Source: Clostridia bacterium
GTDB taxonomy: Bacteria; Bacillota; Clostridia; RGIG7378
DNA length: 64,000 nucleotides
Direction of reading: 5' to 3'
NCBI GenBank assembly: GCA_045588325.1
Contig: JAZNEA010000104.1
Location: forward strand, 1,560 to 65,559
Of this stretch, positions 11,774 to 18,494 are shown piece after piece. Numbering within the stretch: the stretch's first letter is position 1; each line of letters starts with the position of its first letter. The notes under the pieces are model-generated. The model was not told the origin of the DNA. It saw only the letters and a list, made by a program, of their open reading frames with translations, and did no database searches. A program made the position numbers and the translations under genes.

Positions 11774-13791
11774 CTTGTCTTAGTCCCCTTTGATCCTATG
11801 GTGACATCCTGAATCTCGGCCTTGAGCTCGTAGATCCTGTCTCTAATCATGGCAGCAGCCTCATATCTCTCCTCAGCTGCAGCGGCCTTCATCTCTATAG
11901 TAAGCTGTGCAATCATGTCTTCTAAAGTCTTAATATCAGGCAAGCCGACAAATTCGCCTGTCTCCTGGTCCACATCTGCAATCTTGGTGGTCTCAATAAT
12001 GGTCTTAACCGCCTTAGTAACGCTGGTAGGAGTAATGCCGTGGTCAATATTGTACTGCTGTTGAATCTGTCTCCTGCGGTTGGTCTCGTCGATAGCCCTC
12101 CTCATTGAGTCGGTAATCGTGTCTGCATACATAACAACTCTACCCGCCACATTACGGGCTGCTCTGCCTATGGTCTGAACAAGACTGGTCTCGCTGCGAA
12201 GGAACCCCTCCTTATCTGCATCGAGTATGGCTACCAATCCAACCTCGGGAATGTCCAGGCCCTCTCTCAATAGATTAATACCCACCAAAACGTCGAACTC
12301 GCCCTTGCGCAGGTCCTGGATGATCTCTGTCCTCTCTATGGTCACAATGTCACTATGCAAATATCTGACGCGTACACCCATTTTGTCCAGGTAGTCTGTC
12401 AAATCCTCGGCCATCTTTTTGGTAAGCGTGGTAACCAGCACCCTATGGCCCTGGCCTGTCACTATACCGATCTCATCCAGCAGGTCATCTACCTGTCCGG
12501 TAACAGGTCTGACTATTACCTCCGGGTCAATAAGTCCCGTAGGACGAATAAGCTGCTGAACCTCCTGGGTGGAATGCTCACGCTCAAACTTGGATGGCGT
12601 GGCGCTGACGCAAATCATCTGGGGAACTCTGCCCAAAAACTCATCGAACTTAAGGGGGCGGTTATCATAGGCGGAGGGTAATCTCCATCCATATGTGACC
12701 AAATTGTCCTTACGAGCCCGGTCACCATTATACATAGCTCCCACCTGAGGAATGGTAACGTGAGACTCATCCACGAACATAATAAAATCCTCTGGCATAA
12801 AGTCCAAAAGAGTATATGGTGGAGATCCAGGCTCTCGTCCGGATAAGTGACGAGAGTAGTTCTCAATACCCTTACAGGAGCCTGTCTCTGTAAGCATCTC
12901 CATATCGTTAAGGGTACGCTCCTCTATCCTCTGCGCCTCCACATATCTGCCTCGGTCCTTAAAATCCCTGGCACACTCCTCCATCTCAGAAACGATGCCT
13001 GCTATAGCTGACTGCATCTTGGATCGCATAACTGCGTGATGGGACGCGGGAGTAATACCGACGTGACTCCTGGTGGCAATAACCTCTCCTGTGATGCTGT
13101 TAATCTCTCTGATCCTGTCTATCCCGTCCCCAAAAAACTCCACTCGGATAATAGTACCGGATGAATATGACGGAAATATCTCCAGAGTATCGCCCTTAAC
13201 TCCAAAGGTACCTCTGAGCCTTGTGAAATCGTTGCGCTGGAACTGCATGTCCACCAGGGCCTGCATAACGTCATCCATGGAGCGCTCCATGCCAGGTCTC
13301 AGCGACAACATGAGCTCCTTGTAATCCTCTGGATCGCCCAGGCCGTATATGCAGCTGACAGACGAAACGATAATAACATCCTTGCGCTCAAACAATGCTG
13401 TGGTGGCGGAGTGCCTGAGTCTGTCTATCTCATCGTTGACGTCGCAGTCCTTCTCTATATACAGGTCGGACATCGGCAGATAGGACTCCGGCTGGTAATA
13501 ATCATAATAGGACACAAAATACTCAACTGCGTTGTCCGGGAAGAAATCTCTGAACTCTGAGCAGAGCTGGGCTGCCAGTGTCTTGTTATGGGCCAGAACC
13601 AACGTGGGGCGCTGAACCCGCTGGATAACATTGGCCATGGTGTAGGTCTTGCCTGATCCGGTGACGCCCTTAAGTGTCTGGTAGCGATCTCCTCTGAGGA
13701 TGCCCTGAGATAAGCGCTCAATAGCCTCTGGCTGATCGCCAGTAGGCTTGTATTCTGAATGTAATTCAAAGCGTTTCTGTGTTTCTTGCAT
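11770..13791 (-). CDS. uvrB: Excinuclease ABC subunit B
   Basis: [24 protein letters not shown]… helicase motifs. The ORF track begins 15 nt earlier at a TTG; the ATG at 13791 has GGTGG/GAGGG upstream and matches typical UvrB N-termini. Confidence 0.93.
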
Positions 13792-13868
13792 ATCCCTCGC
13801 CACCAAAATCCATAGCAGCTAACATCGCTGCGGATATATATAATATTAGTTCTTATTCCTTATTTGTT

Positions 13869-14135
13869 TTACAATCTTATCAAAATCAGCCCCTGTAACT
13901 CACGAAAATAATCTTTCCAAAACAAAGTCATACCTTGCTTAAGACGATTATCATCCATAGCAAAACCTTTTCGCATATACTCTTTTAGTACATTTGTTGC
14001 CCATATGCGAAATTGAGTTGCCTGTTTAGAATTAACTCTATATCCTGCAGAGATAATTGTATCTAAATTGTAATAATTTGTTGGAGAATTTTGTATCTTT
14101 CCTGGAGTTGCACCATGTGGAGTGACTATTTCCAT
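13869..14135 (-). pseudogene. Remnant of a RhuM-family (virulence-associated) gene; only the central ~80 aa conserved block remains
   Basis: NYYNLDTIISAGYRVNSKQATQFRIWATNVLKEYMRKGFAMDDNRLKQ matches the conserved RhuM core. Intact RhuM proteins are about 330 aa; here the ORF is 88 aa in an AT-rich, otherwise non-coding stretch. Confidence 0.5.
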
Positions 14136-14353
14136 TTTGCTTTGTTATATCCACAATAGCATTCTTCCTTTTTTATAGAATATCATCCTCTCAACGCATC
14201 GGTTGAACATTTGTTCTATTGTATCATTCATTATATATTGCGTAAATACTAATCTAAAGTATTCCCTAAAATTAGTCAAAGATTTTCAGGCCAAATATTC
14301 AAAGAGGGATGGATTTCTCCACCCCTCAAATAAACATATTCTACCTAAAAATA

Positions 14354-15610
14354 TTACTCCACGTCCATCATGGTACCCATAAAAAACGGAACATTGTTCT
14401 CACAATCAATCAACATATACACAAACGGCTTGTCAAGATACACTTCCTTAATATCCTCCGGTGGCATTGCACTACCACAATCCATCTGGACAACAGTCAC
14501 AGCACCGGCCTTAGTACCCTGTTCTCCCACGGAAATAAAGGTCTTATGGAGAACACTGCCTATATAGATATTCATTTCCTCACGTGTGCCAAGGTTACTA
14601 AAATCTGCGTCAAACGCGTTAAAAGCATCTGACATGCCCATCTCCTGTAGAATTTTAGACATCTCCACATCGTATTTTGTCTCAAACTTGGGAATAGAAT
14701 GATTAACCGTTATGTACTGAGGATTTGATAGTAAGTCGTTTAAGGTTTTGCTGTCAAGTGCTGCAACATACTCCGCCACACTTACTCCCTCATTAGGAAG
14801 CATTGCCACAAAGGCATATTTGCCGCCTTCATAATACTTCATAAAGCCAGTTGCCTTTTCATCTTCCAGATAGATGTTGTCTGATCCATACATAAAATCT
14901 ACAGTCTGCTTGGATCCGTTCTCCTTAGTAAAATCTCCACTTTTAACCTGATACTTCTCGTAAGGCTCTGACCATTCTGCTTCAAAGGCCAAGGCATTAA
15001 TGAGATACATGATTGCCTCATCGGGAATCTGCTTAATAATCTCAGGGATCATGCCATCGGTCTTCTCTTTTACCCAATTGTTAATATCTTTGCAGGTCTG
15101 GTTGTTAAATGGTGCCTTATAAACATCTGCGCCATAGTAATCTGCGTTAGTCTGTAGGAAGTCCTGATACACTGCAAAATCCTGGTCCTCGGTAAACCAA
15201 ATGGAATTAGCAAGGCTAAGCTTATACTTGTCTCCCTGAGGAAGATTTCGCATATAACTATAGAGATATAAATTTAACTCCTCTGTGCTCATCCCTAAGA
15301 CAGCTTCCATCTGTGCTAAAGTCTGACCCTCTGCACCATTTGCCGTCATTGCCAAAGCGCATAGCACGGACAAGGGGGAAATCAACGAATTTCTGTCGTC
15401 TTCGATACTTTCCTTAAATAATCGGACTGCAAAGTCTGTTACAATAGCATTTTTGTCTCCATGGTCTTCCAAAGCAACGACCTGTCTCGGAGTAATATCC
15501 TCCATCAAATCCTTTACGTGAGTTACCGTGCCACAGCCTGTTAGATTTAATGTCATTGCACATAACAACAACACACTAACTATAATCAAACCTAAACGAT
15601 CCTTTTTCAT
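14354..15610 (-). CDS. Serpin-family serine protease inhibitor, lipoprotein (signal peptide with LTGC lipobox)
   Basis: 418 aa with serpin-length architecture and a reactive-centre-loop-like GTKAGAVTVVQMDCGSAMPPED near the C-terminus. N-terminal MKKDRLGLIIVSVLLLCAMTLNLTGCG. Confidence 0.8.
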   Translation of the reverse strand: MKKDRLGLIIVSVLLLCAMTLNLTGCGTVTHVKDLMEDITPRQVVALEDHGDKNAIVTDFAVRLFKESIEDDRNSLISPLSVLCALAMTANGAEGQTLAQMEAVLGMSTEELNLYLYSYMRNLPQGDKYKLSLANSIWFTEDQDFAVYQDFLQTNADYYGADVYKAPFNNQTCKDINNWVKEKTDGMIPEIIKQIPDEAIMYLINALAFEAEWSEPYEKYQVKSGDFTKENGSKQTVDFMYGSDNIYLEDEKATGFMKYYEGGKYAFVAMLPNEGVSVAEYVAALDSKTLNDLLSNPQYITVNHSIPKFETKYDVEMSKILQEMGMSDAFNAFDADFSNLGTREEMNIYIGSVLHKTFISVGEQGTKAGAVTVVQMDCGSAMPPEDIKEVYLDKPFVYMLIDCENNVPFFMGTMMDVE

Positions 15611-15624
15611 TATATTACCTCCTC

Positions 15625-16353
15625 TCAGTCATATAAAAACTCATATTCCGGAAGTGCTTTCCATTCCTCTGTTGAAGTTAGAATCTCTACAATTCCTTTG
15701 CATACGTCAAGGAATTTTTGCCCCTTAGCGTCGTCGGAAGCATAGGACAGGGCTATATCCTCTGCTCGAACAGTCTTTTCAAAAGTCTCCGTCTTGACAG
15801 TTAGTACCAAAGTCATGGATGGATTAGAAAACATTTTGCCCTCCTGAGGATCATATTCATCGGGATATGTCTCAATATCCAACTCTCGGATAAGCTCCCA
15901 AATTCTACACTTTTGGCTGTCTGACAAGTAAAGCGTTGTAACATAATCCTCCGGGCTGGTGGCATCTGTGGTTTTTACGAGCTTGCCAGTGGTGCTGTCG
16001 TAGGAGCTAATTCCGAAGACATTCCATGTAATAGAGAAGCTACCGCTAAACTCACCTACGTCTATGCTGTCCTTGCCATCTGAATCTGCATCTCCGCCCG
16101 GGTCAACGATTTCTCCTACCTCTGTGGATTCACCTGTTGTGCTGCCGTTTGTACCTGTCGCTCCGTCTAACGCATTGCCTGCGCTATCATTTCCTGCTGG
16201 ATCACCCGGAAACATTGTTATTACAAGTCCAAGCATCACCAGGCAAAATGGTATACACATGGTCAGGATTCGAATGCGATTTCGGTTGTATTCTTTTATT
16301 CTGTCTCTGCTGCGGCGAAACACTTCCGCCCTTCTTTCTTCAAAACTCCTCAT
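15625..16353 (-). CDS. Putative anti-sigma factor (single-pass membrane protein, Gly/Asp/Thr-rich extracytoplasmic domain)
   Basis: Short basic cytoplasmic N-terminus, one TM helix (ILTMCIPFCLVMLGLVITMF), 4-bp overlap with the upstream ECF sigma gene. Confidence 0.55.
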   Translation of the reverse strand: MRSFEERRAEVFRRSRDRIKEYNRNRIRILTMCIPFCLVMLGLVITMFPGDPAGNDSAGNALDGATGTNGSTTGESTEVGEIVDPGGDADSDGKDSIDVGEFSGSFSITWNVFGISSYDSTTGKLVKTTDATSPEDYVTTLYLSDSQKCRIWELIRELDIETYPDEYDPQEGKMFSNPSMTLVLTVKTETFEKTVRAEDIALSYASDDAKGQKFLDVCKGIVEILTSTEEWKALPEYEFLYD

Positions 16354-16901
16354 AACATCTGCTCACCATCCTTTCCTAGAATGATTCGAAGCTCCTTTTT
16401 CGCACGATACAGAAGATTGTCGACCTGCTTTCGATTCTTTTTCATAACCTTGGCAGCCTCATCGTAAGACAAATCTTCGATATAAACCAAGTGAATGACA
16501 ACACGCATATCCTCCGGTAGTGAAGCAAGAGCACTGTTTATCGCTCTCTTTCGCTGGTCCACAAGAAGAATTTCCTCCATTGCCTCCTGCTGGGACAAGG
16601 CATTCTCTGATTCGCTAAGCTCCACAAAATCAATGACCTTGCGATGCTTTATATAATTTAAGGCACGGCTACGTCCTATCATAAACAAATAGGTTTTCAA
16701 GGTCACCTTAAAGTTGTACCGATGTTTATTAACTATGAGATCCGAAAAAACATCTATAGCAATATCCTCGGCTGCGTAAATATCATGCACATAACGGTCA
16801 ATGAAGAACACTAGATTATCGAACAACTCCTTCATTATTTCGTCAAAGGCACTCTCATCACCATCAAGAAAACGGCGGTAGCTACTTGCACCGTTATCCA
16901 T
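16350..16901 (-). CDS. ECF-type RNA polymerase sigma-70 family factor
   Basis: 183 aa with region 2 (…DLIVNKHRYNF…YLFMIGRSRALNYIKHRK) and region 4 HTH (EDLSYDEAAKVMKKNRKQVDNLLYRAKKELR). Confidence 0.8.
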   Translation of the reverse strand: MDNGASSYRRFLDGDESAFDEIMKELFDNLVFFIDRYVHDIYAAEDIAIDVFSDLIVNKHRYNFKVTLKTYLFMIGRSRALNYIKHRKVIDFVELSESENALSQQEAMEEILLVDQRKRAINSALASLPEDMRVVIHLVYIEDLSYDEAAKVMKKNRKQVDNLLYRAKKELRIILGKDGEQML

Positions 16902-17381
16902 AGACCCCTCCTAATCCGGGTCATGTCTGACCACTTCATCCCTTATACAACTGAAACATAATAATTCCTTATGAAACGATAAATATCTTCATTTTTATTT
17001 TAACATTAAGTACCTTTAAATGGCACTGTTTGCCCCCCATACAAAATAGGGCAAGATTCAAATCCTACCCTAATTATCTTTATTTATCTTGTTTTATTTT
17101 TTGCTTCTTTCCATTCAGATAGTAGCCAACCAAACGCTATCAGATAGGATATTCCCTGCAAAAGCATGCCGTTATATTCAATTATACGTTGTTCTCTAAT
17201 TGTTTTGAGATAGCAAATCCATTTCTTTTATAGAATTTGTCTTCATCGTCAAACTCATAAATCGTGTAAAAGCTGAATGGCTCTCTCATTTCATTTTCTC
17301 CTTATTTAAAAAGTGCCACATAATCTTATATTCAGGTTCAGCTACAATCGACACCTATGTGCCGACGACAGCTCTCAGCAA

Positions 17382-18494
17382 TTATAAACACATGCAAAAT
17401 GCCAATAATATTCCCAGGAAAATAAAGTTGATCAGCAGGAAAAGCAATACATATCTCCCCCTGGTCGCCGGGAAGTGGTGACCATAATGTCTGAACGTGA
17501 TCAGGGATGCCAGAGAAGAAATCAGTGTACCTACACCGCCAATGTTTACTCCCCACAATAGCTCCCTATAGTTATCGGTGAACTGGGAAAGTAAAATGGC
17601 AGATGGCACATTGCTGATAAACTGGCAGGAAATCGTACTATATAACAGCGTGTTTTGCTCCATGAGGCCAGACATAAGTTCTCTGACCACGCCTATCCTG
17701 GACATGTTTCCAGCGAAAATAAAAAACGCCACAAAGGTTAGCAACAGCGGATAATCCACCATCCCAAGGGCCTTCTTGTCAAGCATGTATATAACTATGG
17801 GAATCAGAATCAATCCCACCATATACGGGACAAACCTAAAGACGATAGCAATAGCCAAAACCATTAGCACCAAATACACAATGGTGCGCTTGCGCACAAC
17901 CTGTGGCTCTGCTGGTGGTAGCGTCAGCGGTTCGTTCTTAATAAAGAAGCAGCAAATGCCTAACATCACCATAGAAAGCACAAAGGGTGCCCACATAATC
18001 TGCACAAATTCCCTATTGGAGATATTGTAGTGGCTATAAATATATAGGTTCTGAGGATTGCCAAAGGGGGTAAGCATGCCTCCCAAATTGGCCGCAATGT
18101 TCTGCAAAATGAAGGTCAAAGCCGCATACTTTGTCATGCCAGTGGTACTGAGGATAAAATACCCCAAAGGCAGGAATGTCAGTAAGGCCATGTCATTAGC
18201 AATGAGCATCGATCCAGCAAATGTAATAACAAGCAGGGCCATGACACACTTGCGGGCAGTGTTAAACCCAGTAACTATTCTCCTGGCCAATATGTAGAAG
18301 AAGTTGACGTTTTTGAGGGCGCACACAACTGCAAGCACACAAAACAGACAGGTCAATGTCCTAAAATCTATGTAGTCCAAATACTGTCTGTCAGGCTTTA
18401 CAAATATGGTAGTAATTGCCGCTGCCAAGGTGGCAATGGCAAAAACAGGATTCTTGCGGACAAATGTCCAGGTTAGTTTAAGCGCATCACGCAT
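17382..18494 (-). CDS. ArsB/NhaD-superfamily anion permease
   Basis: 370 aa, about 10-12 predicted TM helices, with the characteristic GNPQNL motif. Confidence 0.65.
   Translation of the reverse strand: MRDALKLTWTFVRKNPVFAIATLAAAITTIFVKPDRQYLDYIDFRTLTCLFCVLAVVCALKNVNFFYILARRIVTGFNTARKCVMALLVITFAGSMLIANDMALLTFLPLGYFILSTTGMTKYAALTFILQNIAANLGGMLTPFGNPQNLYIYSHYNISNREFVQIMWAPFVLSMVMLGICCFFIKNEPLTLPPAEPQVVRKRTIVYLVLMVLAIAIVFRFVPYMVGLILIPIVIYMLDKKALGMVDYPLLLTFVAFFIFAGNMSRIGVVRELMSGLMEQNTLLYSTISCQFISNVPSAILLSQFTDNYRELLWGVNIGGVGTLISSLASLITFRHYGHHFPATRGRYVLLFLLINFIFLGILLAFCMCL

Follow-up and report, generated by a model that had tools for sequence, protein, structure and literature searches.

A stretch of 64,000 nt from a Clostridia bacterium (GCA_045588325.1, JAZNEA010000104.1), referred to below as the window and the basis of all coordinates, carries three adjacent minus-strand genes for an extracytoplasmic function (ECF) sigma factor, a single-pass membrane protein and a lipoprotein serpin. 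We consider it likely that this triad forms one autoregulated ECF sigma operon in which the middle gene encodes a non-canonical anti-sigma factor and an inhibitory serpin at the cell surface is the cargo. The locus is a compact and conserved regulatory unit composed of a promoter motif, the sigma factor, a putative minimal anti-sigma module and an unannotated domain, here termed DOM, with about 1300 cluster representatives. In inflammatory bowel disease, serpins of gut bacteria are under study for their modulation of host protease activity. To our knowledge, next to nothing is known of how such serpins are regulated outside Bifidobacterium.

The triad as a probable autoregulated transcription unit

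The sigma gene and the middle gene overlap by 4 bp (ATGA, 16350-16353), and the middle gene is separated from the serpin gene by 14 bp (15611-15624; Table 1). Gene coordinates, strand and both spacings agree exactly with an earlier note on this DNA, which had proposed that a dedicated ECF sigma/anti-sigma pair controls the serpin. The sigma protein matches Pfam Sigma70_r4_2 (E 1.6e-12, 47.3 bits, cut-off 25.7) and NCBIfam TIGR02937, sigma70-ECF (82.6 bits, cut-off 42.9), and shows a borderline match just below the cut-off of 24 to Sigma70_r2 (E 3.7e-5, 23.9 bits). It contains regions 2 and 4 only, as is characteristic of ECF (group IV) sigma-70 factors. The Pfam and TIGR02937 scores bear out the assignment made in the earlier note. 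Its orthologues in 31 loci share 58-85% identity with the sigma factor of the window.

An ECF-type promoter is predicted in front of the sigma gene. Aligned upstream regions of the sigma genes share AAGGAA(T/C)-N15/16-(C/T)GTATAA(T), followed by a stem-loop and a strong Shine-Dalgarno sequence. This pattern occurs once in the window, where 0.01 matches are expected by chance, and 33 times in the related loci (764 kb in total), with a single match in each. The match is located about 45-75 bp 5' of the sigma start in 32 loci, and in none of the 33 does it precede the serpin gene. An AAC-type -35 and a CGT-type -10 element before the own gene are the mark of ECF self-regulation, and the predicted promoter was scored as being of this kind. 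The ECF consensus of Bacillus sigmaW is TGAAAC-N16-CGTATA, and the triad promoter is similar to it in geometry and in the CGTATA -10 element.

Terminator-like hairpins are found on both sides of the triad. The upstream hairpin (17047-17072) terminates a CitMHS-family transporter gene (17382-18494) located upstream of the triad, and it is predicted to insulate the triad from read-through. The downstream one (14304-14327) starts 27 nt past the serpin stop. Because the sole conserved promoter precedes the sigma gene and such hairpins bracket the triad, the sequence indicates that sigma gene, middle gene and serpin gene are transcribed together as one autoregulated unit. As a possible serpin promoter, a sigma-70-like site at 15609-15637 was considered and rejected, as it overlaps the serpin start codon.

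The one locus in which the promoter is not followed by a sigma gene is L047 (5897-6462). Here, AAGGAAT-N16-CGTATAA lies directly before a stand-alone gene for a DOM lipoprotein, and there is no sigma gene within 6 kb. A promoter without a nearby sigma gene implies that in this genome the predicted sigma regulon reaches past its own operon.

The 5'-untranslated region (5'-UTR) contains a stem-loop, located past the -10 element and ahead of the Shine-Dalgarno sequence. In the window itself, the stem is weaker (5 bp) and its fold is not significantly stable when tested alone, so that the hairpin is supported by the alignment only. In alignment A3, 77.5% of the cells are paired compared to 69.7% in shuffled versions (none of 500 reaches the observed value), and a stem slid along A3 finds at most 49% paired. 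Fourteen cells of A3 are changed on both sides of the stem, and compensatory changes are present in several lineages (L002-L060), among them GGAAC/GTTCC, GGGC/GCCC and GGAG/CTCC. A search of the 5'-UTR against Rfam revealed no matching family. The stem-loop may stabilize the 5' end of the mRNA or be a regulatory element.

Table 1. Positions of genes, protein segments and signals in and around the sigma/membrane protein/serpin triad (window coordinates).
Feature	Position	Strand	Description
ECF sigma gene	16350-16901	-	183 aa
Middle gene	15625-16353	-	242 aa, single-pass membrane protein
N-terminal module of the middle protein, residues 1-47	16213-16353	-	alignments A1, A2, A4; AlphaFold2 (AF2) helix 4-47
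Tether of the middle protein, residues 48-103	16045-16212	-	disordered, acidic, Gly/Asp/Ser/Thr-rich, extracytoplasmic
DOM of the middle protein, residues 104-242 and stop codon	15625-16044	-	C-terminal extracytoplasmic alpha/beta domain, about 140 aa
Serpin gene	14354-15610	-	418 aa, lipoprotein
Serpin signal peptide and lipobox	15533-15610	-	L-T-G-C, lipidated Cys26 predicted
Serpin reactive-centre loop, residues 363-384	14459-14524	-	register-predicted P1-P1' = G379-S380
ECF-type promoter (predicted)	16943-16970	-	AAGGAAT-N15-TGTATAA; -35-like AAGGAA 16965-16970, -10-like TGTATAA 16943-16949
5'-UTR stem-loop	16919-16932	-	between -10 and Shine-Dalgarno; family consensus GGGGTCA-GACG-TGACCCC
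Shine-Dalgarno sequence	16907-16912	-	AGGAGG, precedes the sigma gene
Terminator-like hairpin, upstream	17047-17072	-	11-bp stem, then T run; z = -3.2
Terminator-like hairpin, downstream	14304-14327	-	10-bp stem, GAAA loop, then UUUGAAUAUUU; minimum free energy -28.7 kcal/mol, z = -5.3
ORF with partial RhuM match	13869-14135	-	88 aa, truncated, outside the operon

Conservation of the triad and its flanks

The locus survey comprised one genome per species and yielded 80 DOM loci from Clostridia metagenome-assembled genomes (MAGs) labelled Oscillospiraceae, Acutalibacteraceae, Lachnospiraceae or Eubacteriales, which derive from gut samples (ruminant, rabbit and others). Full-length homologues of the middle protein number more than 570, and none of them is named. 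The comparative genomics suggested in the earlier note revealed that the triad is conserved: A serpin gene follows directly 3' of the full-length middle gene in 21 of 21 species-level loci (L002-L022), with serpins 52-71% identical to that of the window, and a sigma gene is located directly 5' in all 18 loci whose contig reaches this far (58-81% identity, mostly with the same ATGA overlap). In all 25 loci measured, the serpin gene starts at a distance of -8 to +40 nt from the stop codon of the gene carrying DOM. The same triad surrounds an abundant metagenomic serpin with 73% identity that is found on 21 contigs. Since the arrangement recurs in 21 independent species-level genomes, it is not due to chance.

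One explanation for the proximity of regulatory pair and serpin would be that it is incidental: The serpin would be independently expressed and would have been inserted recently, together with a mobile or defence island of which the rhuM remnant is the marker. The sequence directly downstream of the triad could be taken in this sense. An AT-rich spacer separates uvrB from the serpin terminator; GC content is 0.33-0.35 at 13750-14500 compared to 0.47-0.53 in uvrA/uvrB. Within this region, the 88-aa open reading frame (ORF) listed in Table 1 matches positions 15-81 of 252 of RhuM (PF13310; E 1e-27) and positions 73-145 of 335 of the candidate defence family PDC-S05 in PADLOC (E 2e-32). With a full length of about 250-335 aa for RhuM proteins, this ORF is, to judge from the partial matches, what is left of a decayed gene with a putative defence or prophage origin. 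The genes flanking the triad, too, differ among species. This explanation is nevertheless highly improbable in our opinion, as the whole triad is conserved in 21 species with gaps of at most 40 nt, no rhuM homologue was found beside the triad in the other loci, and neither an integrase nor a transposase or tRNA gene is adjacent to it. The AT-rich stretch with the rhuM remnant described in the earlier note is confirmed by GC profile and partial match. The acquired locus deduced from it is weakly supported: Non-syntenic flanks and the adjoining truncated rhuM would agree with acquisition, but GC content is only modestly lower and mobility genes are missing next to the triad.

In an abundant metagenomic relative (L082-L085, e.g. 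L082 6432-10013), a 314-aa ORF without Pfam match comes after the triad. Further on, there are genes for another serpin of 438 aa, which is distant (27% identical), and for a second ECF sigma factor (186 aa), whose gene overlaps a 204-aa ORF.

The middle protein as a putative anti-sigma factor

The middle protein was modelled with AF2 using an alignment of 86 homologues (mean predicted local distance difference test score, pLDDT, 77.8). Residues 1-28 form a basic cytoplasmic helix with 11 Arg/Lys residues and the conserved pattern MR..EE..AEVFRRS..RIK, and residues 29-47 a hydrophobic membrane helix. One unbroken helix covers residues 4-47 in the model. Because a basic segment precedes a hydrophobic one, a single-pass topology with a cytoplasmic N-terminus (N-in) is predicted. 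Within the membrane helix, Pro35 is invariant and Cys33 and Cys37 are near-invariant in alignments of homologues. Conservation among homologues is strong in the first 38 residues as well as in DOM. The tether in between is not conserved and varies in length and sequence among orthologues (A1/A2). It comprises 12 G, 9 D, 6 S and 5 T among the 55 residues of 49-103 and has a pLDDT below 50 over 49-99. The Gly/Asp/Thr-rich outside domain mentioned in the earlier note is therefore correct in its composition, but the segment meant is a disordered linker (49-103), and the folded domain behind it (104-233) had been missed.

The middle protein has no match at E ≤ 0.1 in Pfam or NCBIfam apart from a spurious one to DUF4519, and none in PADLOC. 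A zf-HC2- or RskA-like signature in the 242-aa protein, for which the earlier note had proposed a domain search, was not detected, and residues 1-28 contain neither His nor a CxxC motif. A DOM-bearing protein from locus L068 served as positive control and does match zf-HC2 (E 1e-10). As this defining feature was searched for and is missing, the middle protein is, by its sequence, not a member of the class I anti-sigma family (zinc-binding anti-sigma, ZAS, or anti-sigma domain, ASD). Several results weigh against an anti-sigma function: neither Pfam nor NCBIfam returned zf-HC2, RskA or RsgI_N, PDB sequences searched with a profile of alignment A2 yielded only spurious matches to membrane helices and coiled coils, and the cytoplasmic part comprises only about 28 residues. 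Because a known anti-sigma signature is missing, the assignment has to be made from context and architecture.

Both point to an anti-sigma factor. The middle gene is adjacent to the sigma gene, and the window shares the ATGA overlap with the majority of orthologous loci. The sensor parts vary, but the N-terminal module is retained along with this sigma lineage and accompanies it at every readable locus, whichever outer domain is present. Class B comprises about 18 further loci. There, the gene behind the sigma gene encodes a protein of about 200 aa in which an identical arrangement of N-terminal module and membrane helix is linked to a different ectodomain; in this class (e.g. L025, L026), DOM is carried by a separate downstream membrane protein or lipoprotein. 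A search seeded with the N-terminal module alone revealed proteins of 63-88 aa that are essentially composed of the module only. The genes of the smallest ones (63-68 aa, P0391 and P0395) overlap the stop of an 82%-identical sigma gene with the same promoter in the two contexts examined, on five contigs. Genes bearing the module overlap or abut a sigma gene in every case seen, and other sigma lineages are followed by different N-termini. Two homologues of 308-309 aa (P0091 and P0119) contain an internal lipoprotein signal peptide, MNKACMSLIIVSLLLVCAMAVNLTGC, between N-terminal module and DOM, which looks like the relic of a former fusion of two genes, one for an anti-sigma factor and one, downstream of it, for a DOM lipoprotein. 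This internal signal peptide resembles that of the serpin in the window.

The middle protein could also be a co-transcribed, membrane-anchored partner of the serpin, such as an anchor, cofactor, chaperone or second inhibitor, with the sigma factor being controlled through transcription or by a different factor. The missing anti-sigma signature would fit such a role, and so would free DOM lipoproteins encoded directly beside serpins and outside any anti-sigma protein (L026, L034, L044, L080) as well as the stand-alone DOM gene in L047, which carries the sigma factor's promoter like an ordinary regulon member. However, the N-terminal module is conserved independently of DOM and always overlaps or abuts the sigma stop, even in the 63-68 aa proteins, and DOM is found where the sensor is expected in a bona fide zf-HC2 anti-sigma factor and in a BlaR1-type protein (see below). 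A role as serpin partner instead of anti-sigma factor is, in our view, improbable. Most probably, the middle protein is the cognate anti-sigma factor. It would belong to a short type outside class I, and DOM would be the part that receives the signal. The anti-sigma-like protein of the earlier note holds with regard to its translational coupling to the sigma gene, its predicted N-in single-pass topology and its lineage-tracking module, but not with regard to a recognizable anti-sigma signature.

DOM, a domain in sensor position

In the AF2 model, residues 104-233 are confidently folded with a pLDDT mostly above 90. DOM has no match in Pfam or NCBIfam and constitutes an undescribed family with 1303 representatives of 50%-identity clusters at E ≤ 1e-3 and 655 at E ≤ 1e-10. 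Among the 150 matches listed, it is located at the extreme C-terminus in nearly all cases, in proteins of 158-912 aa, and its commonest form is a lipoprotein of about 170 aa. When the fold was compared to the PDB, the sole significant match was Mago nashi (E 7e-4, template modelling score 0.63). A functional kinship was rejected, as only the topology of a sheet plus two helices is shared.

Two loci from other contexts are informative about the position of DOM. In L068 (269-1938), the gene for a high-GC ECF sigma factor (203 aa) overlaps by 4 bp with a gene for a 353-aa zf-HC2 anti-sigma factor whose extracytoplasmic C-terminus is DOM. The L068 contig stops before any cargo gene. In L157 (3633-6712), a BlaI-type repressor gene (Penicillinase_R) precedes the gene of a 903-aa BlaR1-type M56 peptidase, P0365, with DOM in the extracellular C-terminal sensor position. 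In this BlaI-BlaR1-like pair, DOM replaces the sensor domain of BlaR1/MecR1-type M56 transducers, which supports a sensor role for DOM. In contrast to BlaR1/MecR1, the middle protein of the window has no M56 peptidase domain, and the likeness is confined to the shared domain position.

A same-strand ECF sigma gene is found within 3 kb of 41 of the 58 DOM genes that have at least 2.5 kb of upstream sequence. A serpin gene is located within 6 kb at 30 of the 80 DOM loci, in at least three gene orders and together with two unrelated sigma lineages. For a rare gene family, this frequency is far above chance and points to a specific link between DOM and serpins. In an Agathobacter MAG (L044), an unrelated ECF sigma gene and a gene for an anti-sigma-like membrane protein precede the gene of a lipoprotein serpin, which is in turn followed by that of a DOM lipoprotein.

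The serpin

Residues 57-416 of the serpin match PF00079 over profile positions 3-369 of 370 (E 7.5e-88). The lipobox consensus [LVI][ASTVI][GAS]C is present as MKKDRLGLIIVSVLLLCAMTLNLTG-C26, and most orthologues retain a lipobox. The reactive-centre loop contains an inhibitory-type hinge, GTKAGAV (G365-V371), as read from the sequence. The segment E363-Q-G-T-K-A-G-A-V-T372 is kept across 28 orthologues, with the small residues at P15-P9 that are expected of inhibitory serpins, and the loop tip P5-P5' is hypervariable. The protein is predicted to be a lipid-anchored inhibitory serpin at the cell surface. PF00079 match, lipobox and hinge substantiate the lipoprotein serpin with a recognizable reactive-centre loop of the earlier note.

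A search for named serpin homologues found unnamed metagenomic proteins only. The closest solved structure is tengpin from Thermoanaerobacter tengcongensis (PDB 2pee, 2pef, 2vh4; E 5e-114 over residues 57-416). It has the same GTKAGAVT hinge as the serpin of the window and a different reactive-loop tip. Tengpin is reported to inhibit neutrophil elastase (PMC8201313, PMC5127057). Siropins from Eubacterium siraeum and miropin from Tannerella forsythia, both host-associated anaerobes (gut and oral), are described as surface or secreted serpins inhibiting host elastase-like proteases (PMC5127057). Siropin-like serpins are about 42% identical to that of the window and also bear a lipobox. Their contigs (L086-L156) were recovered from human gut by a scan with the published primer for E. 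siraeum Siropin-1. A lipoprotein-type signal, MKRKFTSLTLTSAILISALSLSAC, is encoded by the siropin-like genes (e.g. L099 5290-6594, minus strand), although the paper calls Siropin 1 intracellular. On some siropin contigs, the primer matches twice at a spacing of about 1277-1280 bp, suggestive of tandem copies.

Proposed mechanism, cargo and inducing signal

At rest, the basic N-terminal helix of the anti-sigma factor would sequester the sigma factor at the membrane. The single membrane helix with its helix-breaking Pro flanked by Cys would span the bilayer, and the disordered acidic tether would present DOM outside. An extracytoplasmic event on DOM or the tether would then cause the removal of the anti-sigma factor, probably by regulated proteolysis ending inside the Pro-containing membrane helix, by analogy with RsiW, RsiV and RseA. 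Site-2 protease substrates typically require a helix-destabilizing residue such as Pro. The released sigma factor would transcribe its own operon, so that sigma factor, anti-sigma factor and serpin would all rise and the serpin would be displayed at the cell surface.

The nature of the cue is more speculative. Exogenous gut serine proteases that attack tether or DOM could act as cue, and the serpin would inhibit the attacker and thereby close a negative feedback loop. Points in favour of this idea are the inhibitor as cargo, the hypervariable loop tip, which is as expected for changing targets, the exposed disordered tether, the repeated linkage of DOM and serpin, and a precedent in Bifidobacterium breve (see below). 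Protease sensing, which the earlier note had suggested, is thus plausible, and we put it forward as a tentative proposal with a limited chance of being correct. The complete protease-triggered and serpin-buffered switch, in which a host or gut serine protease would act as site-1 protease, intramembrane cleavage would follow and the serpin would reset the system, with the amount of inhibitor titrated to the protease load, is rather unlikely as a whole. If it existed, DOM would be a new extracytoplasmic sensor or bait family, used in cis or in trans, which serves at least three ECF sigma lineages and a BlaR1-type transducer.

There is a substantial chance, if short of an even one, that sigma and anti-sigma factor are correctly assigned and that the cue is not proteolysis. 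In this case, DOM would bind an envelope or gut ligand or report envelope stress, and the serpin would be an interchangeable protective cargo. The exchange of cargo between loci supports this view. In about ten species (L024, L025, L030, L032, L035, L046, L050, L051, L054, L060; e.g. L025 6411-7742), the same sigma factor, N-terminal module and promoter are combined with DUF3221 proteins, designated c3, which replace the serpin. In L158-L161 (e.g. L158 3379-7927), an 82%-identical sigma gene with the same promoter precedes the gene of a 63-68 aa protein composed of module plus membrane helix, followed by a 140-aa ORF and genes for a Big_14 protein and a DUF3221 protein; neither DOM nor serpin is encoded there. 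Furthermore, DOM is the outer module of a BlaR1-type transducer and occurs with other sigma lineages that have protease-unrelated neighbours. On the other hand, the frequency of serpin genes near DOM, given above, speaks against this view.

The same cargo data also count against our overall interpretation. Because identical sigma factor, module and promoter carry non-serpin cargo, the switch is not intrinsically a protease sensor, and the sigma/anti-sigma pair is not strictly dedicated to the serpin as the earlier note had assumed: DUF3221 cargo is present in about ten species, and L158/L161 have neither DOM nor serpin. Other objections come from DOM and from related serpins. The PDB fold search with DOM found nothing like a known protease inhibitor or substrate, and class C loci contain DOM operons with a beta-propeller anti-sigma-like protein (PF09826) and without protease-related genes. 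Siropin-like genes have no sigma, anti-sigma or DOM neighbour on the recovered contigs. A connection of the triad with the experimentally studied siropins was rejected, and since siropin genes stand alone, the triad arrangement is specific to one serpin subclade.

The c3 proteins are membrane-anchored, comprise about 325-445 aa and combine a DUF3221 segment with a C-terminal half that is conserved.

Should proteases be the inducer, the locus would represent a self-limiting protease-defence circuit in abundant gut Clostridia, and it could be used as a genetic switch of natural origin that responds to proteases. With any other inducer, it would still provide a new anti-sigma module and an extracytoplasmic signalling domain common to anti-sigma factors and BlaR1-type transducers.

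Comparison with known systems

Full-text literature searches found no paper linking an ECF sigma/anti-sigma pair to a serpin. Gut serpin reviews mention regulation only for the two-component system of Bifidobacterium, and the text of the ECF reclassification paper does not mention serpins.

In B. breve, serpin expression is protease-inducible via a two-component system (PMC8012564, citing PMC3457475). According to the account given there, this gut Gram-positive likewise ties a serpin to a dedicated, adjacent and autoregulated membrane signalling system, and proteases are the demonstrated inducer. By contrast, the triad employs an ECF sigma/anti-sigma pair instead of histidine kinase and response regulator, belongs to another phylum and encodes a distantly related serpin.

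Atypical anti-sigma classes are described with CnrY/NepR (class II) and RsbN (class III; PMC6101532). They have minimal or atypical sigma-binding regions that are missed by ASD and zf-HC2 models, as is the case for the middle protein; sequence similarity between its module and CnrY, NepR or RsbN was not found.

The closest parallels are sigmaW-RsiW and sigmaV-RsiV of Bacillus, the latter known from the RsiV-lysozyme paradigm (PMC4183432). Both comprise a sigma factor with a downstream single-pass N-in anti-sigma factor, an autoregulated ECF promoter and an extracytoplasmic signal domain, and both are controlled by regulated intramembrane proteolysis. The triad differs from them in that the putative anti-sigma factor has no zf-HC2/class I domain and a cytoplasmic part of about 28 residues, DOM is unrelated to their signal domains, the cargo is a serpin and proteolytic activation is deduced by analogy. 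In summary, the operon would work like a Bacillus-type ECF switch, and its putative anti-sigma module and the domain family DOM in sensor position appear to be new; its serpin cargo is unusual and of current medical interest.

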